Shown here one piece after another: positions 1-28,213 of a stretch of DNA of 64,000 bases (the stretch's first letter is position 1; each line of letters begins with the position of its first letter). Source of the DNA: a virus (lineage: Duplodnaviria; Caudoviricetes); the IMG/VR virus record IMGVR_UViG_3300048591_000242, positions 32,001-96,000 of that record, one strand, 5' to 3'. The translations under genes and the position numbers were made by a program. The notes under the pieces are model-generated. The model was not told where the DNA came from. It made no database searches and saw only the letters and a program-made list of their open reading frames with translations.

Positions 1-267
1 CTTATCTACTACTGGAAAGGTATAGGTTACCAGAGTTGGCTCTTCAGTACGCGTAGGCTGACCGTGTTTCTGTGTTTTAGTAAGGTTAGGCTTAACCTCT
101 ACTACTGGCTTAATGTCAATAGTAGCGATTTGTACCGCAGAGGTTAAACGCGGTGGTACCAGATTCATGTTTCCGCCTTGTCTGGCTACTACGTCACGTA
201 CAATCTTAGGATCAAATTCCATTGGCCCAGCAATCTTATTACCGTTACGGAAAATTTCGCATTTCAT
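1..267 (-). CDS. DUF4376-like tail-fibre-associated protein, third paralogue (5' part only; runs off window edge; not in ORF track)
   Basis: Manual translation from ATG at 267 (RBS AAGGA upstream): MKCEIFRNGNKIAGPMEFDPKIVRDVV...IKPVVEVKPNL..., clearly paralogous to 10482-11168 and 11233-11925; open to position 1. Confidence 0.85.
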   Translation of the reverse strand, partial: MKCEIFRNGNKIAGPMEFDPKIVRDVVARQGGNMNLVPPRLTSAVQIATIDIKPVVEVKPNLTKTQKHGQPTRTEEPTLVTYTFPVVDK

Positions 268-360
268 TGTTATATCCTTTCTGATATTTTTAATTAAGAA
301 TACGCCACTAAATAGAACGTGGCGTTATGTACACAAGTTTACTATACAATTTCGATACAA

Positions 361-2022
361 CTACTGGTAAAGGTAGGCCATTGCACTTACAGTTGTAGAT
401 TCCGGTGTAGCTGTGTACTTGCCAGCTACCAGAACACTATTACCATCTCCAGAGATAGCTACTTCTCTACCATAGAAATCTCCAGATACACCATCGGAAG
501 CAAGTAGTTTAGTCTCTATCCAACTAGAACCATCTCTATCGTAGACATAAGCCGAACCTCTGGCTGATCCACCTGATCCATAGGCACCGACCAAAATACG
601 ATTGCCATTAGCGGATATAGCTACATCATGGCCAAAGAAGTCGTTGTTAACGAAATCGGATTGAGTTAGTTTTGTAACACCCCAGATACTGCCATTCCAT
701 TCGTATATATAGATGGCACCACGGTTAGTGTTTTGTCTTGGCGTACCTACTACTACAACTAGTCCATCAGCAGACATAGCCACAGCAGTACCGAATTCGT
801 CACTGGTTACCCCATCCGTAGGAGTTATCTTGACGTAGTTCCAGTTATTCGTTACCCACGTATAGATAAATAGCGAGCCAGCATTATCGGCATACGTGCC
901 TACTGCGAAGCTATAGCCATCTTCTGATATGGCTACATCCCATCCGAAACGTACAGATGAGCTAGGTGAGGCTGGATATATCTTAGTTTGGACATAACTA
1001 CTACCATTCCAGATAAGCATATAAACAGCACCACTAGAAATACCGGCACCTAAATCTACAGGTGAACCTACTATAATTCTAGTGCCGTCTCCGTTTACCG
1101 CTACACTATGCCCAAAGTTGGCATTAGTACGGGTGTATATTGCAAGGATTTTAGTAGCATCCCAACTAGTGCCATTCCATTTGAATACGTGTATGGCACC
1201 CTCACTGGATTGTGTGCCACCCAGGTCATCTAGTGGTGAACCTACAACAATCGTATCCCCGTCTCCAGAAACAGATACTGCTGTGCCGAATCTATCACCA
1301 GACACCTCCTGCGTACTCTGCAGTGTAGTTTCTGCCCAACTACTACCATTCCATTTATAGATGTAAACCTGTCCGCGTGCATTATTCCACCCGCGCGCAC
1401 CTATTACTACAGTCAGTCCATCAGCAGATGTAGCCACAGACTCGCCGTTGTGTGCATTTAGACTATTGTCATAGGTAATGAATTTATATACTTCATTAGT
1501 AGGTGCACCTTGACTGACAGTAAAGCTAATAGCTGGTCCCCATCCAGATTCTAAACCAGAGCTTCCTTTATACTTAGCTCTAGCGTAGTATGTAGTATCC
1601 GGTGCCAGAAACGTATCTGTAGTAGATAAATCTATACTGGTTAAGTTTACATCGTCGTGATATGAATCAAACGCTACATTACTGAAATTAATATCTGTAG
1701 CTATTTGCCACCTAGTGTGCGTATGGGTTTCCATATTGCCATCCGGAGTAATACCGATAAAGGCATTACTGGTTATTACTGGTCTAGTGCCCACATCTAC
1801 AGCGCCATTACTGGGGCTAAGTATGGAAGGTAACTTAATACCAGAAACTAACTCACTTTGGATAAGTTTACCACCTGGTGTTACGCCATCAGATATCCGT
1901 ATGCTCTCCATACCAGGACGTACATCGACTACCAATTCGTTGGGTCCACCTACATGGCTTTCTATGGAGTTACTATTAAACCGTTTCCACAGAAACGGAG
2001 CATTCATTACTTTCGTAGTCAT
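361..2022 (-). CDS. Putative fibre/adhesin: N-terminal anchor + Fn3-like domain + FG-GAP beta-propeller (553 aa)
   Basis: RIxDGVTPGG N-terminal motif, TRWQIATD...YYARAKY...SGW Fn3-like module, about 7 FG-GAP blades (FGxAVSVSGDG...VGxP...GAVYxY). Confidence 0.75.
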   Translation of the reverse strand: MTTKVMNAPFLWKRFNSNSIESHVGGPNELVVDVRPGMESIRISDGVTPGGKLIQSELVSGIKLPSILSPSNGAVDVGTRPVITSNAFIGITPDGNMETHTHTRWQIATDINFSNVAFDSYHDDVNLTSIDLSTTDTFLAPDTTYYARAKYKGSSGLESGWGPAISFTVSQGAPTNEVYKFITYDNSLNAHNGESVATSADGLTVVIGARGWNNARGQVYIYKWNGSSWAETTLQSTQEVSGDRFGTAVSVSGDGDTIVVGSPLDDLGGTQSSEGAIHVFKWNGTSWDATKILAIYTRTNANFGHSVAVNGDGTRIIVGSPVDLGAGISSGAVYMLIWNGSSYVQTKIYPASPSSSVRFGWDVAISEDGYSFAVGTYADNAGSLFIYTWVTNNWNYVKITPTDGVTSDEFGTAVAMSADGLVVVVGTPRQNTNRGAIYIYEWNGSIWGVTKLTQSDFVNNDFFGHDVAISANGNRILVGAYGSGGSARGSAYVYDRDGSSWIETKLLASDGVSGDFYGREVAISGDGNSVLVAGKYTATPESTTVSAMAYLYQ

Positions 2023-3716
2023 TATTTAGTGCTCCAAATTAAAGACTAATTAAAGATGTAGATATGTCCTTCGCCCACTGTACCCAGCTCACCGGCTAAT
2101 ACAGTGGCGCCATCACCTGAAATAGCCACAGATCCAATATAACCAGAATCTACTGCGCCGTATATATCAGGAACTGTCTCATACCAGACACCTTCATCCA
2201 AGGTATATAGATACAGTGCACCACCGTTGTTGATGTGTATGTCTGATCCTCTCGCCGCTACCGCTATAATAGTGGCATCTGAAGACAACGATACAGAGTA
2301 ACCCAACACGTCATGCATGGTCATGTTAGACGTACTAAGTTTACTCTGACTCCAACTACCACTAGATGTCCAACTACCGCCCAGATACTTAATCACATAC
2401 ATTGCACCACTGTTGACTGCTGGTACGGTATGGCCATACGCACCGACTGCAATTACAGTACCGTCATATGAGATGGATATAGAGAAACCGAACCTGTGAC
2501 TACCGGCTCCATCCGAGGCAAAATGCTCTTTAAGCGTTGACCAGCTACTACCACTCCTTCTAGTAACGTATACGGATCCAGCAAAAGAATTTTTTCCGTA
2601 TGCTCCAAACGATGCAGTGTTGCCGTTACCTGAAATAGCCACAGACATACCGAATTGAGTATTTACGGAGTTTATGGGTCGTACTAGTAGAGGGGAGCTT
2701 GCGCCATCATACCAAGAGCCATTGGTCCATGTGTAGATACGGGCAGCTCCAGATGATGTAGCAAACGTATTGTCATAGGGTGATCCTACTATAAATACAG
2801 TGCCATCATAGTTCACCGATACGGATCTACCAAAACCACCACCTTTGCTACTTATCTTGGTCTCATCCCAACTAGTACCATTCCATTTGTATATGTATAC
2901 TAGTCCACCATAGTAACTATTGTTGCCCTCGGCACCTACGACTAATGTATTGCTATCCCCAGAAATGGAAACGGCCAGACCGAAAGCCCACCCAGTCGAT
3001 TCATCAGAAGCATTTATCTTAGTCTCTACCCAATTGTTACCAGATTTTCTGTAAACATAAACCGAGCCAACGCCACTGTTGTCTCCTCGCGCCCCTACTG
3101 CTATAACGGTACCATCAGAGTTGCTGGATACCGCATGGCCAAACTTATCTCCAGCTACTGCATCAGACGAAGTAAATCTATCGGTCTGTGTACCTAAACC
3201 CCCATTACCGGTCATAAACATACTAGTAGGGCCCCAACCTGATTCTAAACCTGAGGCTCCTTTATACTTCAATCTAACATAATAGTTAGTATTAGGAGTT
3301 AACAGAACACCCTCTAAACTAAGATCTATGCTGGTAAGATTAGTAGTCTCCATGTCAGAGTCAAACACGATGGTTGTAAAATTACTATTACTAGCAATCT
3401 GCCACCTTGTATGTGAGTGACTATCCGTATCCATGTTAGCATCTAGTCCTATAAATGCAGAACTATTAAGAATTGGCATTGTACCAATATCTACTGCCTC
3501 ATTAGTAGGGGACAGAAGAAAAGGTAAGTTAATACCTGAGACTAATTCGCTTAAAACTAAACTGCCTCCTGGAGTAACACCGTCACCGATGCGCATTCCC
3601 TCAAAACCAGGGCGCATATCAATCAATAACTCGTTAGCAGCTCCTACATAACTTTCTACTGAGTTATCTGTAAACCGTTTCCAAAGAAACGGAGCATTCA
3701 TTACTTTCGTAGTCAT
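1977..3716. repeat. 46-bp near-identical direct repeat pair (1977-2022 and 3671-3716; 1 mismatch) over the first 15 codons of two propeller genes
   Basis: TAAACCGTTTCCA(C/A)AGAAACGGAGCATTCATTACTTTCGTAGTCAT at both sites. Confidence 0.9.
2046..3716 (-). CDS. Putative fibre/adhesin: anchor + Fn3-like + FG-GAP beta-propeller (556 aa)
   Basis: Same architecture and identical first 15 residues (MTTKVMNAPFLWKRF) as 361-2022. Confidence 0.75.
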   Translation of the reverse strand: MTTKVMNAPFLWKRFTDNSVESYVGAANELLIDMRPGFEGMRIGDGVTPGGSLVLSELVSGINLPFLLSPTNEAVDIGTMPILNSSAFIGLDANMDTDSHSHTRWQIASNSNFTTIVFDSDMETTNLTSIDLSLEGVLLTPNTNYYVRLKYKGASGLESGWGPTSMFMTGNGGLGTQTDRFTSSDAVAGDKFGHAVSSNSDGTVIAVGARGDNSGVGSVYVYRKSGNNWVETKINASDESTGWAFGLAVSISGDSNTLVVGAEGNNSYYGGLVYIYKWNGTSWDETKISSKGGGFGRSVSVNYDGTVFIVGSPYDNTFATSSGAARIYTWTNGSWYDGASSPLLVRPINSVNTQFGMSVAISGNGNTASFGAYGKNSFAGSVYVTRRSGSSWSTLKEHFASDGAGSHRFGFSISISYDGTVIAVGAYGHTVPAVNSGAMYVIKYLGGSWTSSGSWSQSKLSTSNMTMHDVLGYSVSLSSDATIIAVAARGSDIHINNGGALYLYTLDEGVWYETVPDIYGAVDSGYIGSVAISGDGATVLAGELGTVGEGHIYIFN

Positions 3717-3804
3717 GAAAATATAACTCCTAAAAGAGTAATCATTTAAAAGAATTTGGGTATATAGTCGGTAGGAAAAACACTACGGACTATATTAAGA
3801 CATG

Positions 3805-6800
3805 TTAGTATACGGCGTATATATAAGCAGCACCACTGTCATTGCCGCCAGTATCATCATTACGGGCGCCTGAGATAATAGTACTACCGTCGTCAGACAT
3901 GGCTACAGAATAGCCATTTTGTATGTTTCCGACGTTCTCACTATCTGCATGCTGTGTTGTCATCCATACCCCATCCGCATATTTACATGAATAAACCAGA
4001 GATTTGCTAGTAATACCTATACTGTTACCTATGGTACCAGATACAATCCTGTCACCGGTGTCATTCATGTCTAAAGACCAGCCAAATTTATCCCCACCCT
4101 TTAAAGTATGCGGAATAATTAGCTCTTCTTCCCAGACAGATCCATTCCATCTATGAACAGTTGCTGACCCTACTTCAGCCCAATATCCAGAATATCTGTA
4201 CGGTGCACCGACAGTGATAATATCACCAGAGGCATTTACCGCCACAGAATGGCCATACTGGATGCTTGAGCCTATACCAGTATCTGACATAGATAACATC
4301 GTTTCTTCTATCCATACGGTACCGTTCCATTTAAACACATATACGGTGCCCATATTGCTGTTGTATCCAGGGCTACCCACCACGACTGTATTACCGTCGG
4401 TTGATATGCTTAGGGATTGGCCGAAACGATCGCCTGAAACTATACCCGTAGGAGTAGGTATTTCATGTTTTATCCAACTACCTCCAACTAATTTATACGT
4501 ATCAGCACCAAAATAATTGATACCGTTTGTATTTGATTTATCGGTAGATACAACAATCCTGTCACCGGCCCCATTAACGGCCAGTGACATACCAGTACTT
4601 GCGTTAACATGTACGGCTGGTACCGCTGTAGCGGTCTGTGTATAGCTAGTACCATTCCATTGATATAGAACTACTGTCTGACCTAACGTTGAGTTTGTAC
4701 TTACAAAAACTTTATTGCCAGTGGCATCTAGTTTTGCATTTACAGCAATAAGATTACCTAGATCTGAGGTAACAATATGTTCAGTCCAGTTACCTCCAGT
4801 TTTTCTATAGACGTAAACATCGCCTCTGTTGGTGGCCCTACTGTCCTTACCAGGAGCCAAAACAGAAACCACATCACCGTTGGCGGATACAGATACTATT
4901 TGACCGAATCCATCTACGGCCGCCGCATTGCTTGCGTACATAATGTCGCTTTGACCAAAAATATCTACTACTTGATCATTCTCCATTAATCTGTAAATAT
5001 AAACAGCACCCTTGTCAGTATTTCCACCCAGATCGTGTCCTGGTGCACCTATCGCAATCGTGGTGCCGTTACCAGAAACAGATATAGGGTTATGCTTTCC
5101 TACAAGAGTGGTTGATGTTCGTCCAAAATCATCCCTGAACGTTACTTCTGGCTGAACAATATCATGATTCAGCCAAACTGAGCCGTATTTCCTATACACC
5201 ACAACCGCAGATTCATTGGTGTTTATACCTCTATGCACAGCAATGGTTCTTCCGTCTCCAGAAATCGATAGCGGTACGCCATACTCGGTATTTCCTGGAC
5301 CGTATAGAACATCCTCTACCCAACTACTACCATTCCATGTTTTTACTACAACCGCACTGTTACCATTAGTAGTAACCCTTACACTGCCCACTATGATATT
5401 TCCGTCGTCTGACATATCTGAATATTGGCCATACTGACCACCTGTATCGGATATTGGTGAAGTAAGTTTAGATTCAATATATGAACCGCCAATATCACGG
5501 TCGTATATATAAATCGCTCCACCTGAACCAACAGTGCTACCAGGGGCACTTACACATATCCTTGTGTAATCTGAAGATATACTTACGCACTCTCCGTAGA
5601 AAGATACGGCAGAACCGTCAGACGCTGTTCTTTTAACAGGCGTTGACCATCCCAGGACATCCCGTGTAGCTATATAGATGGCGCCAGCAGAAGATCCCAA
5701 TGTGTCGTCTTCTGGAGCACCTATAACTAGTACAACTCCGTTATCTGAAATAGCCACAGATGAGCCAAAATAATCATTAGCTGTCGGGGCAGGCGGGTAT
5801 ATTGTCTCTGTTGACCAACTAGACCCTGTCCATTTATAGAAAACAACATGTCCGGCATTGTTTGCGCCAGTATCTCCGCCAGGATAACCAGCAACAACCA
5901 TATTTCCATCGCTAGTCATGTCCACCGCACTGTGTGCGTATACCCCGGAAGATATACCTCCTCCAGTTAGAGTAGTTCTAGTCCATCCAGTTGGGGTTCT
6001 TTTATATATATAAGAATTACCATTATTGTCACTAAAGGCTGTTACCAACATAGTGTTGCCGTCGTCGGATACACGAACAGAGGTACCTAGTTCTGACGCA
6101 AATATGTCTTCTGGTAGTAAAGTTAATTTATTTACTTGTGTATATGTAAAACTAACTAATGTGGTAAAGCTGCTAGCACTACTCCATGCAGACAATCCAG
6201 CTGTAGCTCCTTCATACATTACTCGTACAAAATGCTCCGTACCTTCAGCTAATGCAACCAACCCATCCAAATCGATTGTTTGTTTGTGAGTAGACTGTAA
6301 TCCACTATCATACACCAACTCAGTAAAGGTAGCATTTGTAGCAACTTGCCATCTACTTCTACTATGAGTATCAGCTCCATCCCCTACCGCAAACCCTATA
6401 AAAGCAGAGCCTGTGATTACTGGAGAGGTACCTACGTCAGTAGTACCTACTACCGGTGAAGTAATAGAAGGAGTATTTACCCCAATCTCATCAAACATAG
6501 TAAAGTTAATTACATCACTCCATGCCGAATCTCTACCAGTAATACCCTGATATTTAACTCTAACATAGTAGGTTTGTCCCTCTACCATGGTGTACTTACT
6601 AGCTAAATTAATACTAGTTAAGTCATTACCCTGCATGTTAGAATCGTAAACTATACCAGTGAATCCACTATTAGTAGAAACCTGCCACTGACTCTGTCCG
6701 TGTGAATCTGGCTCCATTCCTGAACCGAATCCCTCAAAGGCGTTAGCTACTACAGTAGGGTTAGCTGTTAAACCGGTGGCTCCATTAGCTGGAGCGGTAA

Positions 6801-9800
6801 TAACTGGTTTAGTTACACCTACAATAGTCTCAGTAGTGAAGTAACGAACCCCACTCCAATCTGACTCATTGCCAGTGGAGCCACGATACATTACTCGTAC
6901 ATAGTGGGTAGTATTTTCAGCTAAAACTACATTACCAGTTAAATCGTAGCTAGTTAAGTGATCTGACTGCCATCCACTGTCATGAACAACACCTACACCA
7001 GCCGCTCCAATCTCCCATCTAGATGCACTGTGTGTGTCTAATGCGTTACCTGGTAAATATCCTACAAACTGACTGGCAAACAATAAAGGACTAACTAGTA
7101 CGTTTGTTTGGTTTATAGTAGGTAAATTGATACCTGGTCTGTTAATACCCATAACGTCATGGATATTAAAGTTACTATTTGGACTCCATGCAGACTCACG
7201 TCCACTAGTACCACGATGTTTTACTCTTACATAGTAGGTCTGTCCTTCTACCGGAGTATACTTACCCGCTAAACTATAACTAGTTAAGTTAGCTGATTGC
7301 ATGCCACTGTCATGTACCATAGCTGTAAATGTCGCATTGGTGGACACCTGAACCTGTGTATGGCTATGGGTATCTGCCGCTCCTCCTGATAAAAATCCTT
7401 CAAATGCAGAAGTAGTAATTGTAGGATTAGTACCCACTGTGTTACCAGATGGTGGCGACGTTACAGTAGGTGTAGTTACACCCAGAATTACTTCAGTAGT
7501 AAAGCTAATGCTATTACTCCACTCAGAGATTACACCCTCAGTAGATCGGTACATTACACGAGCGTAGTGTACTACACCCTCCGCTAACGTAGTTACACCA
7601 CTTAAATTAATACTCGTTAAGTTAGTGTTTTGTAAACCACTATCAAAGGCCATTGTAGCAAAGGTATTACTTGTGCTAATCTGCCATCTAGTCTGTGAAT
7701 GTACCGCTGCTCCATCTCCTGACTTAAAGCCTACAAATGCAGAACTACTTAGGCTAGGACTTACCAGTACGTTAGTGCTGCCACTAGAAGGAGCTGTAAT
7801 AGAAGGTTTATTTACTCCAATTACATCAAACATACTGTAGCTTACTGGGTTACTCCAAGCAGATGTTCTGCCGCTTTCACCACGATACTGTACTCGTACG
7901 TAGTATGTTTGACCCTCTACTGAAGTGTACTTTCCTACCAAGTTGTAGCTAGTCTTATTAGCGGCCTGCACACCACTGTCATGGACAATGTTAGTAAAGC
8001 TTGAGTTAGTGGCTACCTGCCACTGAGTGGTGTAATGGGTATCCGGTGCCATACCAGACAAGAAACCCTCAAAGGCGCTGCTAGTTACTGTAGGATTAAC
8101 AGTAAGTGCAGTGGTGCCGTTAGAAGGACTAGTAATAGACGGCTTAGTAACGCCTAGAATTGTCTCTGTAGTAAAGCTAACGCCATTACTCCATGCAGAA
8201 GTCTGACCACTTACACCTTGATACATTACCCGTACATAGTAAGTGGCATTCTCTGATAGGGTAACTATGCCGTTTAAATTATAACTAGTTAAGTTACTGG
8301 CACTCATACCACTGTCATGGGTAATATTAGTAAAACCTGAGTTCGTGGCAATCTGCCATCTAGTTCTACTATGTACGTCATTGCCATCACCCACAGCAAA
8401 CCCTACAAAGATAGAGCTGGTTAATGTAGGACTAACTAGTACGTTGGTGCTGCTATTTGCAGGTGCTGTAATCGAAGGCTTGTTAATACCTACTACATCG
8501 CGCATAGTAAATGTATTTGATTTACTCCACGCTGACAATCTACCGCTAGTACCCTGATGCTTAACACGTACATACAGAGTTTCACCCTCTTCAGTAACAA
8601 ACTTACCTGCTAAACTATAGCTAGTTAAGTTAGTCGGTACCATTCCAGAATCATGTTTAATAGTGCCAAAGGTTGGACTGTTAGATACCTGCCACTGGCT
8701 AGACATGTGTGAATCTGGAGCCATACCAGATAAGAAGCCCTCAAATGCACTACTAGTCATAGTAGGCAATGTGGTTACATCTACAGCCCCACTGGCTGGA
8801 CTAGTAATAACTGGCTCAGTTACACCCAAGATAGTTTCAGTAGTGAAACTACGTACATCACTCCATACTGACTCTCTACCACATACACCCTGGTGTTTAA
8901 CTCGGATGTAATGCGTGGTATTTTCCGCCAGAGTAATTACACCACTTAAGTCATAGCTGGTAAGATTAGTGGCCTGTAAACCGGTGTCATGGACAGTACT
9001 GGTAAAGGCTGCATTAGTAGAAATCTGCCACTGGGTTTTACCATGTACATCAGCCGCCATACCAGATAAGAAGCCTTCAAAGGCTGTACTGGTAAGGGTA
9101 GGACTAACTAGTACATTAGTGCTACCACCAGTAGGTGCAGTAACAGAAGGTTTAGTAACCCCTAAAATAGTTTCAGTAACAAAGCTTACATAGGGAGACC
9201 ACTCAGACAGCACATTGTCGGTCCCGCGATACATTAATCGCGCATAGTAAGTAGTGTTTTCTGCCATAACAAACTTACCGCCTAGGTCGTATTCGGTAAG
9301 TTCAGCAGATTGCATACCGCTGTCATGGACAATGTTAGTAAAGCCTGGGGTAGTGGAGATCTGCCATCTACTACCAGTGTGAGTATGTGGTACCATACCC
9401 GACATATAGCCTTCAAATACAGAGCCTTGTAGTACAGCGGATACCATAACTGCAATATTACCGTTAGCTGGATAAACCATGCTGGGGGTAATAATGTTTA
9501 TGATAACTTCCATAGTAAAGCTAAGTACGTTACTCCACTGTGAAGTGCGCCCACTCGCACCTACATGCATTACTCGTACGTGATATGTAGCGCCTTCCTC
9601 AGTAACAAACTTACCGTTTAGGTTATACTCGGTAAGTGCACTAGCAGACAAACCACTATCATGTAAAATATTAGCAAAGTTAGCATCACTGGCTACCTGC
9701 CATCTACTAGCAGAGTGAGTGTCTAATGACATACCGGTTAGGTAACCTTCAAAGCCACTACTAGTTACTAAAGGCGGACGAATAACGTCTACTACACCAG

Positions 9801-10350: not shown

Positions 10351-10439
10351 TTGGTATAACTCCTAAAGAATTATTATTTGTTATGTAAGCTACAAGACCG
10401 GTTTATTGTAATATAGCTACAGAGTTGACATAAAGCTTG

Positions 10440-10469
10440 TATAGGCTGTAACTTAAGTTACAGCCTATA
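10440..10469. other. Perfect 30-bp palindrome (TATAGGCTGTAACTTAAGTTACAGCCTATA) just downstream of the 228-aa gene; terminator/processing hairpin candidate
   Basis: Self-complementary sequence read directly in the intergenic region. Confidence 0.55.
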
Positions 10470-10481
10470 TAGCCGGTATAC

Positions 10482-11168
10482 CTAGAGGGATTCTACTAAC
10501 TCCTTAAACTTAACATAAGGACTAAACAAAGAGGCGTTTGCTTCAGTCAACTGAGCAACCATATCTTCTACGGCAGAACGTGCAGCAAAGCCTTTACTTA
10601 AATGATCAGCAATGGCGTTGTATAGCCCAGTCATTTCTTCTACGCTAGTAACAGGAATACTAGCCGGAGGAGTCTTCTCCTCTAATCCCATTACACTGTT
10701 AGTAGGCGGTAGCTCTCTGCCTCTCCAGTTTACGTTAGTAACTGCACCACTGTTAAAGAGATCCAGTGTAGCCTTAGCGTTTACTCGCGCTTCGATATCG
10801 GAAGCTATTACTACCCCACGGTGTATTAAACCGTTGCGCTCGTGTGCGTTGTGCAGTTCGGATAACCGACGTAGGTGCTCAATGCGAATCTCATCCAATG
10901 TCTTGTTACCTACAATGTAGTCATGGATAATCTCACCTGCGGACTCACGGCTATTAAAACCTACATACTTCTGACCTACCGTAAGATTAGGTTTAACCTC
11001 ACGTACTGGCTTAATGGTAAAGGTAGCTACAGAAAACATACGCGTAAGTGTTTTAGGAGTACTGGCATTATTACAGCCATGTCTTCCTAAGAAGTCCTTT
11101 ACTACCTGAGCATTATAAACCACAGGACCCATTACTTTATTACCATTACGGAATATTTCACATTTCAT
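10482..11168 (-). CDS. DUF4376-like tail-fibre-associated/chaperone protein (228 aa)
   Basis: C-half pattern (ERNG..H.G..IASD.EAR...V.WRG...EEM..LY.AI..H....F) resembles DUF4376; lies among fibre genes. Confidence 0.55.
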   Translation of the reverse strand: MKCEIFRNGNKVMGPVVYNAQVVKDFLGRHGCNNASTPKTLTRMFSVATFTIKPVREVKPNLTVGQKYVGFNSRESAGEIIHDYIVGNKTLDEIRIEHLRRLSELHNAHERNGLIHRGVVIASDIEARVNAKATLDLFNSGAVTNVNWRGRELPPTNSVMGLEEKTPPASIPVTSVEEMTGLYNAIADHLSKGFAARSAVEDMVAQLTEANASLFSPYVKFKELVESL

Positions 11169-11932
11169 TTTAATACCCTTAATAATTAGATTGTTAATTT
11201 AGTGACATTAGTACATTACTAATATATAAAAACTACTGTTGCGTTATTCCGTAGAATTCTGCTCTTATGTCGTATGCTACAAGCTCGCTATAAGTTAACG
11301 ACAAAACTGTATCCTCTACTGCAGACCTAGCTAAGAAACCACTATTTAAATAATCTACAATAGCTCCAAAAACACCTAAAACATCATTTATCGAATTCAA
11401 AGGTATAGTAGCTACCTTTAACTCTTTAACGTTTACATCACCTAATCGACTTACACCTGGATTAGCTATTTCCTTACCTCTCCACTTGGTAGAAGTAATA
11501 GCTCCTGAAGTAAATAAGTCTAAAGTGGCCTTGGCATTAATTCTGGCTTCGATATCTGCCCTAATTAATATACCGTTGTATTCAAACAACTCGGTCTCGT
11601 AGTGGTTATGGATATTAGATAATGTCTCTAGAGATTCGGTGACTAACTCCTCTAGAGACATATTGACTACCGACCATGTATATTTAACATGTGTAGCGGT
11701 TACTTCCCTTATTGGATCTGTGTGTTTCTGTCCTACTAGTAAACCCGGTTTTATTTCTAGTACTGGCTTTATGGCAAATGTAGAAATTACCACTACAGTA
11801 ATAAGTGTATTGGGTACCCTAGAGACATCACAACCATTGGACGCTAATAGATCCCTAACCACTCGCGGGTCGTATGCTACCGGACCCATTACTTTATTAC
11901 CATTACGGAATATTTCACATTTCATTTTAATA
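11125..11932. repeat. Identical 51-bp direct repeat pair (11125-11175 and 11882-11932) over the start of the two DUF4376-like genes
   Basis: GGACCCATTACTTTATTACCATTACGGAATATTTCACATTTCATTTTAATA occurs at both sites. Confidence 0.9.
11233..11925 (-). CDS. DUF4376-like tail-fibre-associated/chaperone protein (230 aa)
   Basis: Paralogue of 10482-11168 (shared MKCEIFRNGNKVMGPV and DIEAR.NAKATLDLF.SGA). Confidence 0.55.
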   Translation of the reverse strand: MKCEIFRNGNKVMGPVAYDPRVVRDLLASNGCDVSRVPNTLITVVVISTFAIKPVLEIKPGLLVGQKHTDPIREVTATHVKYTWSVVNMSLEELVTESLETLSNIHNHYETELFEYNGILIRADIEARINAKATLDLFTSGAITSTKWRGKEIANPGVSRLGDVNVKELKVATIPLNSINDVLGVFGAIVDYLNSGFLARSAVEDTVLSLTYSELVAYDIRAEFYGITQQ

Positions 11933-11959
11933 TGACCCCATTACCCGCTCTACACGTCG

Positions 11960-13642
11960 CTATCCACCATACAAATATATCGACCCTGAATTAATAAGAG
12001 TGGGGTCTACGCCATATGCACCTACTGCTAATATACCTAAATCCGAAAACGCCACACTAGTACCGAAATAATCATTAGCTAAGCCATTGGGAGAAGTGTG
12101 TTTATAATACTCAACCCAGGCATTATCTACCAGGGCATATACAAATACTGCGCCATTATCTCTAGAGGCGCTATCGTCTCCGTATGAACCTACAGCTAGT
12201 AGATTACCGTCATGTGCCATAGATACGGAATACCCATAGGCACAGCCACTAGTATTGCTATTAGAGAATAGCTTAACATCTAAAAGCCAATTAGTGTTTT
12301 CATAGTGATAAACATATACTGCACCAGTGTCTTTTTTAGTACTAGAGTTTTTATAAGAACCTATAGCTAGTCTAGTGCCGTCTCCAGATAATGAAACACT
12401 AACTCCATAATGATCATTTCTCTTACCGTCTAAAGGACTAAGTAATATGCCATCCCAGCTAGTGCCATTATAGCTAAATACAAAACAGCCCCCGGATAAG
12501 GTGTTAGATCCATTCTGTTTACTCCAAGTAGAACCTATAGCCACCACCAATCCATCATCGGAGACAGATATAGAGTTACCAAAGCTTTCATTATTTAATG
12601 GTACAACAGGCGTCAGTGTAGCTGAGTTAACATAACTACTACCATTTCTTTTATACACGGTAACTAACCCAGAGCTCACTCCAGATACTAATCCTAATCT
12701 TGAAGAAGTTAAAATGGTGTTACCGGTAAAATCAGCAGCCACTGAGTATCCGAACTCCACATTGGAGGCGGATATTCGTGTATCTATATGATTCCAGCTC
12801 CCTTGAGAGTACTCGTATACATACAGACCACACTCAGTATCACCTACTGCGCCTACTGCAATAATACTACCGTTTCCAGATATAGCTACAGCAAATCCAA
12901 ATCGCTTATTAGCACCAGGGCTATTACCGTATAACGTTGTGTCTAATGCCCAACCAGCAGCATTTCTTTTGTAGATATGTACCTGACCTGAGTTTACCCC
13001 ATGAAAGTCTGCATCGTCTGCCCCTACAACCACCGTAGAGCCATCGTCAGAGATATCTAGGGCGTAACCTATAGTAGAGGTACCCCCTAGAGTATCTGCC
13101 TTCAGAGACTCTATAAGGGCCTCTGGTAGGCCGCTAGCTGAAGAGAAACCCGAGGCAGGACTCCATTCGGATTCATCACCATAATGACTCTTATACCTAA
13201 CTCTTACATATATACCTGAGTTACTAGGCATCTGTGCCATGTAAGTACTTAGATCTATGGTGGTTAAGTCGCCTATCCATCCAGTATCCAAAATAGGAGT
13301 TACAAAGGCTAAATTATCTGCTACTTGCCAACGACTACTTAAATGTATTACCCCATCTATCCTACCGTCCGTATACATAAACGAGGTAGAGGTAACTATA
13401 GGTACTGCCTCTATATTAAAGGCTCCGTCTATGGGAAATAGAATGGATGGGGTATGTACCTGTGACGCTATAGGTTTAGCAACCGGTATACCGCCTACAG
13501 TAGTGCCGTCCGATATACGCATAATGGGCTTAGGACCACGCATGTCCAGTATAGGTTCTCCTACAGCCCCTACGTAATCCTCTATTGCATTACTGTTAAA
13601 TCTCTTCCACAGCCACGGCATTTTTAATCTAAACACACCCAT
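11960..13642 (-). CDS. Putative fibre/adhesin: anchor + Fn3-like + FG-GAP beta-propeller (560 aa)
   Basis: WLWKRFNSNAIEDYVG...RISDGTTVGG; SRWQVAD Fn3-like module; FG-GAP blades. Confidence 0.75.
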   Translation of the reverse strand: MGVFRLKMPWLWKRFNSNAIEDYVGAVGEPILDMRGPKPIMRISDGTTVGGIPVAKPIASQVHTPSILFPIDGAFNIEAVPIVTSTSFMYTDGRIDGVIHLSSRWQVADNLAFVTPILDTGWIGDLTTIDLSTYMAQMPSNSGIYVRVRYKSHYGDESEWSPASGFSSASGLPEALIESLKADTLGGTSTIGYALDISDDGSTVVVGADDADFHGVNSGQVHIYKRNAAGWALDTTLYGNSPGANKRFGFAVAISGNGSIIAVGAVGDTECGLYVYEYSQGSWNHIDTRISASNVEFGYSVAADFTGNTILTSSRLGLVSGVSSGLVTVYKRNGSSYVNSATLTPVVPLNNESFGNSISVSDDGLVVAIGSTWSKQNGSNTLSGGCFVFSYNGTSWDGILLSPLDGKRNDHYGVSVSLSGDGTRLAIGSYKNSSTKKDTGAVYVYHYENTNWLLDVKLFSNSNTSGCAYGYSVSMAHDGNLLAVGSYGDDSASRDNGAVFVYALVDNAWVEYYKHTSPNGLANDYFGTSVAFSDLGILAVGAYGVDPTLINSGSIYLYGG

Positions 13643-13663
13643 AATACCACCAGTATATAAAGG

Positions 13664-15340
13664 TTAACCAAATAAATGAGCAGAACCAGAGTTAGCTCCA
13701 TAGGTAGAATTACCAGGGGCACCCGCTATTACCTTAGCTCCGTTATCGGAACAAGCTACTACCCTACCTAACATGTAACCTGAACTATTACCTACTAAAG
13801 ATATCTTACTCTGCTCTATCCACCCTGACTGAGTTTCCATAAATACATAGACTGCTCCACTGCCGTCAGCAGACTGACTGCCCACGAACAACAAACTACC
13901 GTCTTCCGATAAAGCCACATTGGTACCAAATTCAAAATAGTAACTATTGTCAGAAGCAGTAAGTTTCTGTATCTGCATCCAGGTACCATTTATCTTTCTA
14001 AAGATGTATACGCCACCAGAATCCAATGCACTGCTGTCTGCGTAATTAGCCCCTATGGCTATAGTAGAGCCGTCTCTGGATATGTTTACACCTATACCAA
14101 AGGTAGAGTAGCTACTATAATCAATGGCCGTTAGTTTTTGTAGATATACCCAGTTATTACCATTATGCTCAAATACATAAGCAGAACCTGCATTAAACTC
14201 CAAACTATTATCTAAGTGAGAGCTTACTACTATAGTAGAACCGCTATCGTCTATAGATACCTCGTCTCCAAATCTATAACCGGCTGCGCCATCTGGTGCA
14301 CTGAGTATAGCTACTTGGGTGAATACGTTATTTACATAGTCATATACATAAGCCCGGCCTACATCAACTTCGGTAGCAGTATCTTTCCAACCTGCTCCTA
14401 TGACTAACGTATTACCGGAATTACCTAAGTATACACCTACACCAAAATAATCATAATTTAACATACCGGAAACAGAGATAACCTGCTTCTCTACCCAAGA
14501 ACCTAATTCTAGATCGTAAATGTATACAACCCCATCTCCTATAGCACTAGAATCTACCAGAGGAGCCCCTATGGCTAATCTAGTGCCATTTCTGGACAAA
14601 GCTATCGAGTATCCAAAGTAGCTACCGTCTACTATACCTACCGGCTGGATCATACTGCTGTTAGACCACACTCCATTGTCATTGGTATATACGTAAACTA
14701 CCCCTAAACCGCCATAGCCGCCCACAGCAACTGTATTACCATCGCCACTTATAGCTACTGCTCTACCAAAATAATCACCACTGGTAGGTGAGTTCTTAGT
14801 AAAGGTATTGGTAAGTACAGAAGGTATAGCACGTATAGTTCTAAAGCTTACCGGTACAGACCAGTCAGAAGCATCTGCGGTATTAGCTACATACCTAACT
14901 CTAGCATAGTAGACAGTATCTCCATTTAACACTAGTCCTATACTTAATAAATCTATACTTAATAGATTTACTGTGTCTGCTCCACTGGAGTAAAGTATAT
15001 ATTTAAAGTCTATGTCTGTAGCTAGCTCCCAAACAGACGCGTAATGAGTAGTAGCGTTGCCTTTGTTATTACCTACAAAGACACTACTTTGAATTACTGG
15101 AGTAATGGAAATATTAATAGCTCCTTGTGCAGGTGAGATTATTTCCGGAGTAAGTACTTTACCCACTCTACCTTCACTAATGATTCTGCCGCCTGGCTTA
15201 ACACCATTCATGAGGCGAATGTAGGGCTTCCCTTCCCTAAAATCAATAACGGACTCAGCAAAATCACCGGTATCCGTGTTTTCTTGTGCTGGATCAAATA
15301 TTCTCCAAGTAACAGGATTGGTAATATACTTAGTACCCAT
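13664..15340 (-). CDS. Putative fibre/adhesin: anchor + Fn3-like + FG-GAP beta-propeller (558 aa)
   Basis: More divergent anchor (RLMNGVKPGG), Fn3-like module, FG-GAP blades. Confidence 0.75.
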   Translation of the reverse strand: MGTKYITNPVTWRIFDPAQENTDTGDFAESVIDFREGKPYIRLMNGVKPGGRIISEGRVGKVLTPEIISPAQGAINISITPVIQSSVFVGNNKGNATTHYASVWELATDIDFKYILYSSGADTVNLLSIDLLSIGLVLNGDTVYYARVRYVANTADASDWSVPVSFRTIRAIPSVLTNTFTKNSPTSGDYFGRAVAISGDGNTVAVGGYGGLGVVYVYTNDNGVWSNSSMIQPVGIVDGSYFGYSIALSRNGTRLAIGAPLVDSSAIGDGVVYIYDLELGSWVEKQVISVSGMLNYDYFGVGVYLGNSGNTLVIGAGWKDTATEVDVGRAYVYDYVNNVFTQVAILSAPDGAAGYRFGDEVSIDDSGSTIVVSSHLDNSLEFNAGSAYVFEHNGNNWVYLQKLTAIDYSSYSTFGIGVNISRDGSTIAIGANYADSSALDSGGVYIFRKINGTWMQIQKLTASDNSYYFEFGTNVALSEDGSLLFVGSQSADGSGAVYVFMETQSGWIEQSKISLVGNSSGYMLGRVVACSDNGAKVIAGAPGNSTYGANSGSAHLFG

Positions 15341-15362
15341 TGCAGATTTCCTTTATTAGAAA

Positions 15363-17048
15363 TTATTCAAAAATATAAGCAGAACCTGAGGATAGACCAG
15401 CATCATCGTCTGCTTGCGCACCGGCTATCAGCAGAGATGCATCGCTCGCTATAGAAACAGAACCACCAAATTGATCTTGCTCAAAAATATCAGTAGAAAC
15501 TATTCTGGTTTGTACCCAGTTACCACCTGTATATACAAACAAGTAAACTGCTCCAGAGTTTGTACCATTACCGCCATTAGATAAAGAGCCTATGGCTAGG
15601 GTGTTGCCGTCTGCCGATATAGATATACTTCTACCGAACTGATCTCCAGCCGCATGGTCGTTAGGCATCAACTTAGTTTCATCCCAAGTAGTACCATTCC
15701 AGTCGTATATGTAAACGGCCCCTGAATTAGCTCCAACCGGATCTGCTGCATAGGCACCCACTGCGATTCTGGTACCATCAGCATTGACGGCTAACGCGTG
15801 TCCGAATTGATCGTTGGCTAAACCATCAGATGGATCTATGCGTGTAACTGGCCATCCACTACCATTCCACTTCATTACATAAATAAAACCAGCCTCATGG
15901 CCGGTAGCACTAGATACAACAGTATCGCCATCCTCAGAAACAACTGAGGCCCTACCTAGCGACCAATTATATCCTGGATATGTACCATGTACACCAGGTA
16001 TCACTATATCAGTTCTGGCCCACCCAGTACCATTCCAGCGGTAAATACGACACTTACCCATGCGATAGTTGAATCCGGCGACAGAATAATCATATCCTGG
16101 GTCGCCCACTACCCGTACCTCTCCGTTGCCTGATAAAGCCACAGACGATCCAAGGCTAGTGAACGGAGTTTCACCGGTAGTTAAGAACAATTCTTCTACC
16201 CAACTACTACCATTCCAAGTAAATACATATACTCTACGATTGTACTGATTAGCACCAAACTGACCAGGTGCACCTATGATTATCTTGTTGCCATCGGATG
16301 AAACATCTATAGCTTTACCGAATTGAGATTGGTTAGATCGTGATGCTGGTCTAAGAATGGTTTCTACCCAACTACTGCCATTCCATTTATAAATGTACGC
16401 TGTGCCTGCACTGCTGTTTTCGTTGTAGGCACCAACCACTACCGTACTTTTGTCATCCGATATTACTACAACGTTACCGTATACATCAGAGGCGGCTCCA
16501 TCAGAAGCAGTCAACTTAAATAACTGAGTATCTGGTAAAACTATACCGGTGGTAAAACTCACTACTGGACTCCATTCGGACTCTAGGTCATCTATGGAGT
16601 AGTGTTTTACTCTAACAAAATGCTCAATGGCTTCAACTAGTACCTGTGGTACTGTACTTAAGTCAATAGACTCTTTGTTAGTAGTAGCTTCTCCTGAGTC
16701 ATAAACCAGAGTAGTGAACAATGCATCTGTAGCTATTTGCCATCTAGTAGCTACGTGCCGGTTATTGGTAATGTTAGTGGCCGCATAAGGACTACCGGTA
16801 ATTACTGGAGAAGCACTAATACCTACGCTATCATCCAAAGGGGATACGATAGTAGGTGTATCTATAGCGGTTAAAACATCACCACCTAATGGTTTGCCAC
16901 CAGGGGTAGCCCCATCCATAATACGTACTTTTACCTTACCGTTTTTAGTATACAGTACAGGCTCACGAGGATCACCTAATTCAGAAAACATACTGTCGTC
17001 GTTAAAAGCTCTAAGACTAACAGGGCTAGTTATTTGCTTAACAGTCAT
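15363..17048 (-). CDS. Putative fibre/adhesin: anchor + Fn3-like + FG-GAP beta-propeller (561 aa)
   Basis: RIMDGATPGG anchor, TRWQIATD Fn3-like module, FG-GAP blades. Confidence 0.75.
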   Translation of the reverse strand: MTVKQITSPVSLRAFNDDSMFSELGDPREPVLYTKNGKVKVRIMDGATPGGKPLGGDVLTAIDTPTIVSPLDDSVGISASPVITGSPYAATNITNNRHVATRWQIATDALFTTLVYDSGEATTNKESIDLSTVPQVLVEAIEHFVRVKHYSIDDLESEWSPVVSFTTGIVLPDTQLFKLTASDGAASDVYGNVVVISDDKSTVVVGAYNENSSAGTAYIYKWNGSSWVETILRPASRSNQSQFGKAIDVSSDGNKIIIGAPGQFGANQYNRRVYVFTWNGSSWVEELFLTTGETPFTSLGSSVALSGNGEVRVVGDPGYDYSVAGFNYRMGKCRIYRWNGTGWARTDIVIPGVHGTYPGYNWSLGRASVVSEDGDTVVSSATGHEAGFIYVMKWNGSGWPVTRIDPSDGLANDQFGHALAVNADGTRIAVGAYAADPVGANSGAVYIYDWNGTTWDETKLMPNDHAAGDQFGRSISISADGNTLAIGSLSNGGNGTNSGAVYLFVYTGGNWVQTRIVSTDIFEQDQFGGSVSIASDASLLIAGAQADDDAGLSSGSAYIFE

Positions 17049-17068
17049 TTGCGTTTACCTTTTGTAAA

Positions 17069-18733
17069 TTATGAAAAAATGTAAGGAGTATATCCATCTA
17101 ACGTAAGTGTGTTAGATAACAACGTGCTTCCATCTGAAGATAGCTGCATAGCTATGCCAAATCTATCTTCCTGTGTGTTCCCTATAATGGATAGTCTGGA
17201 ATCCTCAGCCCACTGACCAGTCTCAGTGCTAAATAACTGTACCTCCTGAGCCTGCCTTATACCGGCTATAGATTCCCCTAAATCAGTAGCTATGGCTATT
17301 AAAGTACCGCCACTATTAATACTGAGTCTGTAACCGAAACCAGCACTTGCGTATGGAGTGGTGGAAATTATCTGTCTCGTGACTGGCCATGTATTACCGT
17401 CACGGGTATGTATGTAAACAGTACCTGCGCTAGTTACAGTAACGTATGTATCATGGGCGCCAATTGCCAGTACATTACCGTCAGCAGACAAATCTACGGC
17501 TCTACCGAAACGTACGCCAGCAGTGGCCCCAGACAACATTTGTCGCTGTACCCAACCTGCGCCTCCTGAGGTATAAACATATACTGCCCCAGCAAACGAG
17601 GCTCTCTGATGTGCCCCTACAGCTACTACATTTCCGTCTTCAGACAAAGCTATAGTTCCACCGGCATATCCAGAACCCTGCGGTGTGTCCGCTGGAATGA
17701 CTCTACTAGTCTCAACCCAAGTACCACCCACAAAACGATACAGATATACAGATCCACAAGTTAATCCATTGTAGACTGCACTAGGGGCACCCGCCGCTAA
17801 TACGCTTCCATCCTTGGATACTGCTACTACATAACCAAATGCCTTATACTCACCGCCGTCTGTATTAGTCAATATCTGACTTTCTATGTAGTCACCACTA
17901 CCGTCTAGGTTAAATACAAAAGCCACTCCCTGTGCATTAGAGCTATCTCCTACTACTAAAACATTACCACTCTCACTTAAAGCTACCGATATACCGAAGT
18001 TATCACTAGCCGTGACAACAGAAGGTAAAACCTTCTGGTTATACATCCAGGTATTCCCTACCTTCTTAAAGATATATACGCCACTCTCTGCAGTGCCGCC
18101 TATGCGTGTGGCACCTATGGCAGCTATAGTACCATTTCCGTTTATAGCCACACTTCTACCGTAGTTTAAATCTGTTAAATCCACACCCGGCAACAGACTA
18201 GTAATTTGTGTATCCGGTATAGCTGCCCTGGTTACAAAGCTAATTATGTTACTCCATTCAGAAACGGTTTCTGAAGAAGAGGTATGTAATACTCTAGTGT
18301 AGTATCTGGTACTAGGTAACAGCGATAGCGGTATAGTACTTAGATCTAAATTAGTTAGATTGTTTACATCGTTACCACTATCATAAACTGGACTAGAAAA
18401 CAGCGGACTAGTATCTATTTGCCATCTACTAGAGGCATGTACTATGTTGTTACTATCGGTAGAGTTATATGCGCTAGAAGAAATAACTGGAGACAGATCT
18501 ATACCAAGACTATCGTTTAACGGAGAGGTAATACTTGGCTTCTTTACTGATAATAACAAACCACCACCGATAGGTAAACCACCGGGTGTTACTCCGTCAC
18601 TTATACGCAATCTAAGGCCACCGCCCCTGGCATCTATAATAGGTTCTCTGGCAATGCCAACTACAGAGAATAGACTGTCGGTGTCATCAAACGACTGCCA
18701 CAAGACAGGTTCTGGTATATATCTGGTATTCAT
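17069..18733 (-). CDS. Putative fibre/adhesin: anchor + Fn3-like + FG-GAP beta-propeller (554 aa)
   Basis: RISDGVTPGG anchor, SRWQIDT Fn3-like module, FG-GAP blades. Confidence 0.75.
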   Translation of the reverse strand: MNTRYIPEPVLWQSFDDTDSLFSVVGIAREPIIDARGGGLRLRISDGVTPGGLPIGGGLLLSVKKPSITSPLNDSLGIDLSPVISSSAYNSTDSNNIVHASSRWQIDTSPLFSSPVYDSGNDVNNLTNLDLSTIPLSLLPSTRYYTRVLHTSSSETVSEWSNIISFVTRAAIPDTQITSLLPGVDLTDLNYGRSVAINGNGTIAAIGATRIGGTAESGVYIFKKVGNTWMYNQKVLPSVVTASDNFGISVALSESGNVLVVGDSSNAQGVAFVFNLDGSGDYIESQILTNTDGGEYKAFGYVVAVSKDGSVLAAGAPSAVYNGLTCGSVYLYRFVGGTWVETSRVIPADTPQGSGYAGGTIALSEDGNVVAVGAHQRASFAGAVYVYTSGGAGWVQRQMLSGATAGVRFGRAVDLSADGNVLAIGAHDTYVTVTSAGTVYIHTRDGNTWPVTRQIISTTPYASAGFGYRLSINSGGTLIAIATDLGESIAGIRQAQEVQLFSTETGQWAEDSRLSIIGNTQEDRFGIAMQLSSDGSTLLSNTLTLDGYTPYIFS

Positions 18734-23860: not shown

Positions 23861-24842
23861 TTACCCTAAGCAAAGTTATTCCACATATTACCCCTTCTCT
23901 AGCTATCACCACATTGCCTGCCGTGGAGTTTGATTTTCTTAGCTGTAGTTTAACTACGTTTCCAGCAGTAAGACCCACAGTGGTACCTGTACGCGTCGAT
24001 TGACTAAGTACTGTGTTCTCTACTAGAAATCTGAATTCTACATCTAAAGGGGTGTCCGTAAGTTCATCTACAGGGTTACCACTAAACATAACCATGTATG
24101 TTCCAGTAAAGGCAACTGTGACTGATATACCAATATCAGTCCACGTAGCATTTTGTACATTATTTAGCACAGGGTTAGTGCTTACTGTATTAGCTTCAGC
24201 CGTATAGATGTTTTTATGGCCAGTTATAGTAGACAGTGTAGCCGCTATAGAAGCCATACCCTCAGTCATCGGCTGTATGTAGCCTTCATTTAGGTCTACA
24301 ATGTCAGCCATAGTAATGTGCCTTTCTGGAGAACGGATAGCCGCCTCCAGAGAAGTAAACTTAGCTAATATTTCTGCTATACCCACAAAGTTATCTAAAC
24401 GATGTGTATGTGGGGTAGGTGGAAACCCAGTAGGTACATTTACAATGTCAGCCCATGTTCTGGAATTAAGGTTAGCTAATGCATCTAAGCCATCCTGTAT
24501 AGCCTGACTTTCTTCATTTACGTATTCACCACCCAATGTCTGATAGTTTAACAGGAAACTACCTACACGGTTTACGTCTACTAGTGCCACAGCTCCTGAG
24601 ATGGGTACTCCTACTTTCTCACTAGCTTCTTCAAAGGGATAGGCATAAAAATAATCTACTCCTTCTATTAAAGCATTGCCTGTGGCTACATCAACAACAA
24701 CCATACTGTTATTGTAAAAAGGCGCGTTTCTTGGCACAAAGTAATTGTGATCTGCACCAGAAATAGCATTTACCGTATGAGACTCATTGGAGATGCGATT
24801 TGCATTAATGGTCCCCGTCGGATCAAAAACAAATAACGGCAT
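23853..24842 (-). CDS. Virion structural/tail-fibre base protein, phiKZ-like (329 aa)
   Basis: FDPTG..NANRI.NESH N-terminus; PTGFPPTPHTH motif; overlaps next gene by 8 nt. Confidence 0.6.
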   Translation of the reverse strand: MPLFVFDPTGTINANRISNESHTVNAISGADHNYFVPRNAPFYNNSMVVVDVATGNALIEGVDYFYAYPFEEASEKVGVPISGAVALVDVNRVGSFLLNYQTLGGEYVNEESQAIQDGLDALANLNSRTWADIVNVPTGFPPTPHTHRLDNFVGIAEILAKFTSLEAAIRSPERHITMADIVDLNEGYIQPMTEGMASIAATLSTITGHKNIYTAEANTVSTNPVLNNVQNATWTDIGISVTVAFTGTYMVMFSGNPVDELTDTPLDVEFRFLVENTVLSQSTRTGTTVGLTAGNVVKLQLRKSNSTAGNVVIAREGVICGITLLRVSD

Positions 24843-24947
24843 GGCCTATCCCCTTTTTTGTGTTATAAGTGTAATAATACTGAATATTCATCCATAGTAT
24901 TTAACCGATAGATCCTATGTATGCGGTGTTTACATAACGGAGGAATC

Positions 24948-28143: not shown

Positions 28144-28213
28144 ATGAAGCTCCAGTGTATTTTAATGTGTATTTTAGCATAGAATTGGCGTATTGTTTGA
28201 ATTTGCCTTTAAA

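Follow-up and report, generated by a model that had tools for sequence, protein, structure and literature searches.

What does a phage do with an array of integrin-like propellers? The host range of a phage is set by its receptor-binding proteins, and in phiKZ-like jumbo phages, studied for therapy and for viral complexity, the fibre tips are still resolved less well than the rest of the virion (PMC13250141). The question is raised by a 64,000-nt stretch of phage DNA (the window; bases 32001-96000 of IMG/VR record IMGVR_UViG_3300048591_000242), which opens with a run of paralogous genes (F) for FG-GAP beta-propeller proteins, interleaved with genes (D) for proteins with a predicted DUF4376 fold. 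Coordinates prefixed G000 follow the numbering of the whole record. We show here that the complete array encodes nine propeller proteins, eight of which combine an N-terminus related to that of the Bordetella phage protein Mtd with an Fn3-like stalk and a seven-bladed head. We propose that the array probably encodes the variable, distal components with which the tail recognizes the host, providing receptor-binding fibres with many different heads.

Composition of the array

The first-pass annotation of this DNA had described six minus-strand paralogues of ~555 amino acids (aa) and one of 2181 aa, and all seven open reading frames are present at the positions given in Table 1. Its view that the array runs past the edge of the window is borne out by an eighth paralogue (F0), a 776-aa FG-GAP protein (X776, also P0012) and the complete D0 gene, all located outside. 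The count of seven propeller proteins accordingly holds for the window, while the full array comprises eight paralogues with an Mtd_N-type N-terminus and one protein with a phiKZ gp131-type anchor, making nine propeller proteins with ten propellers. Read in the transcribed direction, the genes are F7, F6, F5, F4, D2, D1, F3, F2, F1, D0, F0 and X776. The whole array occupies 23.3 kb, which corresponds to 11.5% of the 202,179-bp genome, and its genes are closely spaced with gaps of 20-35 nt. A scan for sigma-70 promoters and terminators found such sites no more commonly than in shuffled sequence; phiKZ-type promoters lie outside the coverage of the tool.

The heads are predicted integrin-alpha-like propellers

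The domain anatomy of the array proteins was defined with hidden Markov models built on the array sequences themselves. Each ~555-aa F protein consists of an N-terminal module (N-module, aa 1-58), a single Fn3-like domain (aa 59-172) and exactly seven FG-GAP blades. F3 has 14 blades and hence two propellers. With a cut-off at 23 bits, Pfam FG-GAP_2 scores 78.7-186.9 bits in the seven window proteins (E 4e-22 to 6e-56) and 61.3 bits in X776.

An AlphaFold2 model of F1, calculated from an 18-sequence alignment, has a mean predicted local distance difference test score (pLDDT) of 82. Foldseek places the integrin alpha4 headpiece at the top rank for this model, and the top 50 solved matches in VIA-align are all propellers of integrin alpha headpieces (Z 34-38 over ~350 residues, root-mean-square deviation ~3.1 Å). 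As a statement on fold, the assignment of the heads as integrin-alpha-like FG-GAP propellers is well supported by the model, so that structure prediction upholds what had first been proposed from the letters of the sequence.

In terms of family, the array proteins are best classed as FG-GAP_2 members and not as integrins. In sequence, the heads come closest to FG-GAP_2 proteins of bacteria and archaea, many of which have 14 blades. These 14-blade cellular homologues (P0015, P0020, P0022, P0025 and others) contain tandem double propellers, as found at the C-terminus of F3. The best database match, P0015 (526 bits), was considered as a closer relative and set aside, as its score stems from the 14 blades and the protein is encoded by an ordinary bacterial chromosomal gene.

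A divergent Mtd_N module at the N-terminus

A profile of the eight N-modules searched against the whole PDB has Mtd as its sole match (Mtd residues 2-49, E 0.025), which is weak by itself. A homologous N-terminus in an uncultured relative passes the threshold of the Pfam Mtd_N family (PF18454) with 32.9 bits against 26.3 (E 6e-8). Alignment of the array N-module profile with this relative in hhalign gives a probability of 97% (E 3e-11), and F0 is 43% identical to the relative over the N-module and Fn3-like domain. Because the relative passes the Pfam threshold, hhalign joins the two and F0 resembles it over both domains, we assign the shared N-terminus as a divergent Mtd_N domain at the level of sequence profiles. 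This agrees with the phage-fibre docking type suggested in the first-pass annotation. A full-length 540-aa FG-GAP fibre of a relative scores 22.8 bits in the Mtd_N search. Within this genome, the Mtd_N-like module occurs in the eight array proteins only.

In the monomer model of F1, the N-module has a pLDDT of 42-68. This low confidence is compatible with an obligate oligomer and proves nothing.

The link to Mtd also suggested a diversity-generating retroelement as the source of variation among the heads. This candidate was ruled out, because a search of the 202-kb genome with RVT_1 found no reverse transcriptase while the controls were positive; homology to Mtd does not imply retroelement-driven diversification here.

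The Fn3-like stalk and divergence among paralogues

Between docking end and head, the Fn3-like assignment is supported by Pfam matches above cut-off to Ig_Rha78A_N (134.9 bits against 27.4) and PhoD_N (56.8 against 30), in line with the stalk module noted at first pass. The 12 tandem repeats of F3 are visible in the DNA as a period of 336 nt.

Mean pairwise identity between paralogues is 39% for the N-module, 38% for the Fn3-like domain and 32% for the propeller. Divergence is thus greatest in the heads, in line with the first description, but strong conservation is not seen in the N-module either: its pairwise identities extend from 19 to 72%, and only F1 and F2 reach the upper value. F2 is the closest paralogue of F1, and the two genes are identical at 45 of their first 46 coding nucleotides, then ~70% identical (window 1977-2022 and 3671-3716). 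Similarly, D1 and D2 are identical over ~51 nt across the start codon, including 8 nt before the ATG, and then ~70% identical (11118-11176 and 11875-11933). These near-identical 5' ends may be the result of gene conversion or recombination, or of selection on the initiation region. Long branches lead to the phage heads in a maximum-likelihood phylogeny of 87 propeller domains (lengths of 1.5-2.9, where the median is 1.05), and this tree neither shows nor excludes a single origin, with in-situ duplication on one side and repeated acquisition on the other.

The array lies next to phiKZ-type tail-fibre genes

Judging by the similarity of its neighbours to known tail genes, the array sits within a tail-fibre gene block. 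In the order of transcription it is preceded by a homologue of phiKZ gp130, two genes with a gp131-like N-domain, a gene for a 425-aa tail-fibre-like protein and four small genes (Table 1). The gp130 homologue and the first gp131-like gene are transcribed away from each other, an arrangement also seen for gp130 and gp131 in phiKZ. The open reading frame at window 26860-28143 was also considered as the gp130 homologue (its product and phiKZ gp130 are both 427 aa) and rejected, as direct comparison gives no similarity.

The 2026 cryo-electron microscopy atlas of phiKZ shows twelve peripheral fibres, each with a base in which gp131-like N-domains form a hexamer below gp130 (PMC13250141). These are hetero-hexamers of the paralogous N-domains of gp131, gp133, gp134 and gp135, and the distal tip of the fibre is the seven-bladed propeller of gp131 (PDB 4GBF; PMC13250141). 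In the present genome, the gp131-like N-domain is found on the 329-aa and 575-aa products upstream of the array and on X776, where it matches phiKZ gp135 (E 2e-14) and gp134 (E 2e-12). It was not found on any of the eight Mtd_N-type paralogues. With a gp131-type end in front of an Fn3-like domain and seven blades, X776 appears to be the architectural counterpart of gp131, carrying a head from another propeller family. The anchor region of X776 (aa 112-181) also contains a repeated motif, W..I..vP..FPP..H.H, that matches 'tail collar fibers gp4' in PDB 9D93 (E 2.6e-7).

Table 1 Genes of the array and neighbouring tail genes. Positions refer to the window unless prefixed G000 (whole record).
Feature	Position	Strand	Product	Basis
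D0	1-267, cut by window edge; complete at G000 31572-32267	-	231 aa; DUF4376-fold, chaperone-like	39-43% identical to D1/D2
F1	361-2022	-	553 aa; Mtd_N-like N-module, Fn3-like domain, 7-bladed FG-GAP propeller	Pfam, own HMMs (hidden Markov models), AlphaFold2 model
F2	2046-3716	-	556 aa; architecture as F1	Pfam, own HMMs
F3	3805-10350	-	2181 aa; N-module, 12 Fn3-like repeats (aa 59-1400), propellers at aa 1417-1792 and 1808-2181	Pfam, own HMMs
D1	10482-11168	-	228 aa; DUF4376-fold, putative fibre chaperone or cap	Model, AFDB clusters
D2	11233-11925	-	230 aa; paralogue of D1	Sequence comparison
F4	11960-13642	-	560 aa; N-module, Fn3-like domain, 7 blades	Pfam, own HMMs
F5	13664-15340	-	558 aa; N-module, Fn3-like domain, 7 blades	Pfam, own HMMs
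F6	15363-17048	-	561 aa; N-module, Fn3-like domain, 7 blades	Pfam, own HMMs
F7	17069-18733	-	554 aa; N-module, Fn3-like domain, 7 blades; transcriptionally first array gene	Pfam, own HMMs
F0	G000 29939-31507		522 aa; eighth paralogue, array member beyond window	
X776	G000 27473-29803		776 aa; differing N-terminus of 289 aa, Fn3-like domain, 7 blades; array member beyond window	
Tail-fibre-like gene	20465-21742	-	425 aa; upstream of array	PHROG tail fibre families
gp131-N-like gene	22133-23860	-	575 aa; phiKZ gp131-type N-terminal fibre-anchor domain	E 9e-6 to gp131
gp131-N-like gene	23853-24842	-	329 aa; phiKZ gp131-type N-terminal fibre-anchor domain	E 2e-26 to gp131 aa 8-164; 4e-26 to gp131
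gp130 homologue	24921-26192	+	423 aa; homologue of phiKZ gp130, a baseplate protein with the fibres attached below it	blastp E 1e-4 over 392 aa; phiKZ gene order

The interleaved D proteins resemble fibre chaperones

The model of D1 has a pLDDT of 92, and its top matches among AFDB clusters are mostly DUF4376 or phage tail-fibre and tail proteins (best E 1.2e-7, full length). Sequence and fold searches of the PDB with a D protein yielded generic helical-bundle matches only and no matching solved structure. A DUF4376 fold of the D proteins is thus supported by the predicted structure. The family is small, with 20 clusters in a set of 5.8 billion proteins and 69 representatives in an exhaustive profile search; a search of GenBank phages found no member, and a scan of IMG/VR with the D alignment no relative.

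All three D genes are located 3' of fibre genes, D2 after F4, D1 after D2 and D0 after F1, and the same holds in relatives. DUF4376 proteins in comparable positions have been linked to fibre function: gp27 of Alteromonas phage V22 is required for active fibres, for gp9 of Alteromonas phage A5 a role as transient cap has been put forward (PMC7289586, PMC10579305), and the DUF4376 partner of the Campylobacter CJIE1 H-fibre is required for its function (PMC7882524). Like these proteins, the D proteins are of ~195-240 aa, have a predicted C-terminal helical DUF4376 fold and are encoded directly downstream of a fibre gene. By analogy, they are putative fibre assembly chaperones or caps. Tfa-type chaperones have been described with variable N-domains (PMC7882524), whereas in D0, D1 and D2 conservation is higher in the N-terminal half, with the first 11 residues invariant.

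Relatives of the array

A megablast search of the array against 50,697 GenBank phages gave no match, and the combination of Mtd_N, Fn3-like domain and FG-GAP propeller was found in a handful of uncultured contigs only. One of these, of 24.7 kb, has six fibre genes, split three and three by a D gene, and ahead of them stand the small genes also seen here and a gene for a 573-aa protein. A second (L020) has the order fibre, D, headless gene, fibre, fibre, D, so that the interleaving of fibre and D genes is retained in the uncultured relatives. The headless gene (L020:2512-2979), between a D gene and two full fibres, encodes 155 aa comprising Mtd_N and Fn3-like domain only. Truncation of a paralogue could explain it, as could a dedicated role as adaptor or as competitor for the docking site.

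A 217-kb JGI jumbo-phage contig contains four FG-GAP genes of 650, 416, 147 and 656 aa (L013:10001-16609). Compared directly, the 650-aa protein has the Fn3+propeller cassette in common with the array (E 2e-11), behind a third type of N-terminus that is related neither to Mtd_N nor to the gp131 N-domain. The first-pass annotation had envisaged one docking module that mounts many heads. This picture has to be amended: the constant unit is the Fn3+propeller cassette, present on at least three N-termini, which are Mtd_N-like in eight proteins, gp131-type in one and of the third type in the other jumbo contig. Since the same cassette sits behind differing N-termini, the Fn3+propeller head seems to be the portable unit, to which varying docking ends are joined.

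Among cultured phages, isolated propeller-only FG-GAP proteins occur in S-TIM5, Vibrio phage nt-1, Agrobacterium phage Atu_ph07 and Sinorhizobium phage Phosso. The protein of cyanophage S-TIM5 is described in its database deposit as a virion structural protein. Phosso has two adjacent propeller-only FG-GAP_2 copies beside a collagen-like minor tail protein, and unannotated propeller proteins therefore occur in the tail region of an unrelated jumbo phage as well. At this locus (L025:23452-36533), the collagen-repeat 'minor tail protein' is followed by hypothetical proteins of ~315-395 aa, the last two of which are the propeller-only copies; a giant gene of >11 kb nearby also matches FG-GAP. The docking and stalk region has a weak match in the tail fibre of Nitratiruptor phages. 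Full-text literature searches returned no paper on FG-GAP phage fibres. The earlier remark that no described fibre system of this architecture was known therefore stands for GenBank phages and the literature searched, although gp131 provides a precedent for a propeller-tipped fibre (PMC13250141).

Proposed role of the array

In the most probable arrangement, eight fibre species, probably trimeric, would be attached through their ~55-aa Mtd_N-type end to a fibre or baseplate partner in the virion. The Fn3-like spacer would set the reach, with one domain in most copies and twelve in F3, whose stalk we infer from the domain count to be ~40-50 nm long, about the ~50 nm quoted for phiKZ fibres. At the distal end, the seven-bladed FG-GAP propeller would act as the ligand-binding head. 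X776 would plug straight into the gp130-associated fibre socket of the baseplate through its gp131-type anchor. With their diverged heads, the fibres may recognize several surface receptors of a single host or of different hosts, and the D proteins may serve subsets of the fibres as assembly chaperones or transient caps. An extension to the binding of biofilm matrix or eukaryotic surfaces, also raised at first pass, is pure speculation.

Several observations weigh against this proposal. The phage is known from a metagenomic contig alone, and PHROGs has no family for any of the fibre or D proteins. The array proteins themselves fall below the Pfam Mtd_N cut-off of 26.3 bits, the best being F0 with 13.8 bits and the others giving no match. 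The heads share with integrin alpha the seven FG-GAP blades and a strong superposition, but they lack a beta-subunit partner and thigh or calf domains, and the calcium loops of integrins (DxDxDGxxD) are absent from the blades of all nine proteins, for which reason an integrin-like ligand chemistry cannot be assumed. The D proteins differ from characterized DUF4376 chaperones in three ways. Their similarity to Pfam DUF4376 (PF14301) is below threshold (17.0 and 16.2 bits, where 25 would be required), so that the 'DUF4376-like' label of the first-pass annotation is sustained by fold and not by sequence score; they number three for nine fibres; and their clients would be propellers. The propeller is a monomeric fold, for which the usual role of a fibre chaperone, trimerizing an intertwined C-terminus, is not obviously needed.

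A variant of the proposed role, which it does not exclude, is that the paralogues co-assemble via their N-modules into hetero-oligomeric and possibly branched fibres, each with a mixture of heads, instead of forming nine separate homomeric ones. The hetero-hexameric fibre bases of phiKZ set a precedent for such mixing of paralogous N-domains (PMC13250141). The N-modules of the array are related without being identical, the genes are tightly packed and terminator signals between them do not rise above chance. Mtd, however, is a homotrimer. We regard mixed assembly as a tentative option, for which the chances are rather on the low side.

The propellers could also be polysaccharide lyases or hydrolases directed against capsule or exopolysaccharide, in which case the array would be a depolymerase arsenal and not a set of pure adhesins. 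Jumbo phages with multi-depolymerase branched fibres are known, with Klebsiella phage PhiKp24 as the example cited in PMC13250141, and the seven-bladed propeller motif often goes with enzymatic activity (PMC13250141). The two Pfam matches of the Fn3-like domain, moreover, point to a resemblance to the Ig domains at the N-terminus of glycoside hydrolases and phosphatases. Yet the top structural matches are without exception non-enzymatic integrin alpha propellers, and a Pfam scan of the window fibre proteins detects no catalytic family. An enzymatic function of the heads therefore seems unlikely to us.

Alternatively, the Mtd_N proteins might decorate the head, neck or whiskers and give loose adherence to particles, mucus or biofilm matrix instead of triggering infection. 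Ig/Fn3-like domains on phage capsids give adherence of this kind, and in the array only X776 has a baseplate-type anchor. Such a role is nevertheless quite improbable given that the array lies inside a tail-fibre gene block, that Mtd_N docks a tail fibre in its type example and that DUF4376 partners act as chaperones of tail fibres. A last candidate role is that of factors which stay inside the cell or are released, such as for superinfection exclusion or modification of the host surface, and whose genes lie beside tail genes by chance. This would fit the absence of PHROG matches, but we consider it highly improbable in view of the fibre-type docking domain, the chaperone-type partners, the gp131-type anchor on one member and the absence of any signal peptide or transmembrane segment in the array proteins.

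Comparison with known fibre systems

As putative receptor-binding fibres, the array proteins are most readily compared with gp131-gp135 of phiKZ. Both sets belong to phiKZ-like jumbo phages and form a paralogous fibre family adjoining the gp130 gene. The gp131 propeller, in contrast, has no FG-GAP signal (a weak RCC1-like match only) and no similarity to the array heads beyond the N-domain, and 4GBF does not appear in the 50 best structural matches of the F1 model. Eight of the nine array proteins start with an Mtd_N-type and not a gp131-type domain. There is one propeller protein in phiKZ, compared with nine proteins and ten propellers here, and the phiKZ fibre locus is without DUF4376-like partners, of which the array phage has three.

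Mtd of phage BPP-1 (PDB 1YU0-1YU4) has the homologous docking domain of ~50 residues at its extreme N-terminus and is a distal receptor-binding protein, as we predict for the array proteins. The head of Mtd is a C-type-lectin fold varied by a reverse-transcriptase retroelement, whereas the array carries propellers and holds its diversity as paralogues.

The array also resembles multi-receptor-binding-protein systems of jumbo phages such as PhiKp24, in that a single block of genes specifies many different receptor-binding proteins, putative ones in the array, and these presumably sit on the tail together. Systems of the PhiKp24 type use beta-helix depolymerase tailspikes with T4 gp10-like adaptor domains, in place of which the array has propeller heads and Mtd_N docking. 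It would fall among these multi-receptor-binding fibre systems, with a head family, a docking combination and a scale that are undescribed.

The phage genome

The record has direct terminal repeats and encodes split RNA polymerase (RNAP) beta subunits of both the virion and the non-virion enzyme (phrog_2986, E 7e-166; phrog_3148, E 0). There are 314 matching phiKZ-like records, and on the basis of its split multisubunit RNAPs the phage is classified as phiKZ-like. Its nearest cultured relatives are Vibrio jumbo phages, with an amino acid identity of only ~43% in an RNAP subunit.

A blastp comparison with chimallin (phiKZ gp54) gave one weak candidate, a 637-aa open reading frame at G000 139947-141860 with 21% identity over 373 aa (E 0.006); a separate search of the genome for a chimallin homologue with a single-sequence query gave no match. 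Formation of a phage nucleus is plausible but unproven.

Elsewhere in the window, a 2069-aa protein (49521-55730, minus strand) matches phiKZ gp181-type tail proteins (phrog_3201, E 3e-163). It contains an M23-like metallopeptidase/endolysin domain near aa 1745-1870 and is probably a tail-associated lysin that pierces the cell wall.

Implications for phage host recognition

The array represents a previously undescribed fibre design, in which a docking end of the Mtd type and a stalk of Fn3 domains are combined with an integrin-type FG-GAP propeller head, in a nine-fold set accompanied by DUF4376 chaperone-like genes. It extends the theme of a propeller at the fibre tip, established by gp131, to another propeller family and supplies concrete proteins to express as candidate phage adhesins of a new class.

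A bolder, and in our view doubtful, interpretation is that of a combinatorial adhesin system, in which a mobile Fn3+propeller cassette, possibly swapped with cellular FG-GAP surface proteins, is joined to varied docking ends, heads are mixed within fibres by co-assembly through the Mtd_N module and removable D caps control which of them are exposed. If true, this would provide a broad, reprogrammable receptor repertoire and a hard-wired counterpart of the retroelement-driven diversification of Mtd. On the simpler proposal of multi-head receptor-binding fibres, if the heads bind distinct receptors, the phage would possess an unusually large hard-wired repertoire for host recognition.

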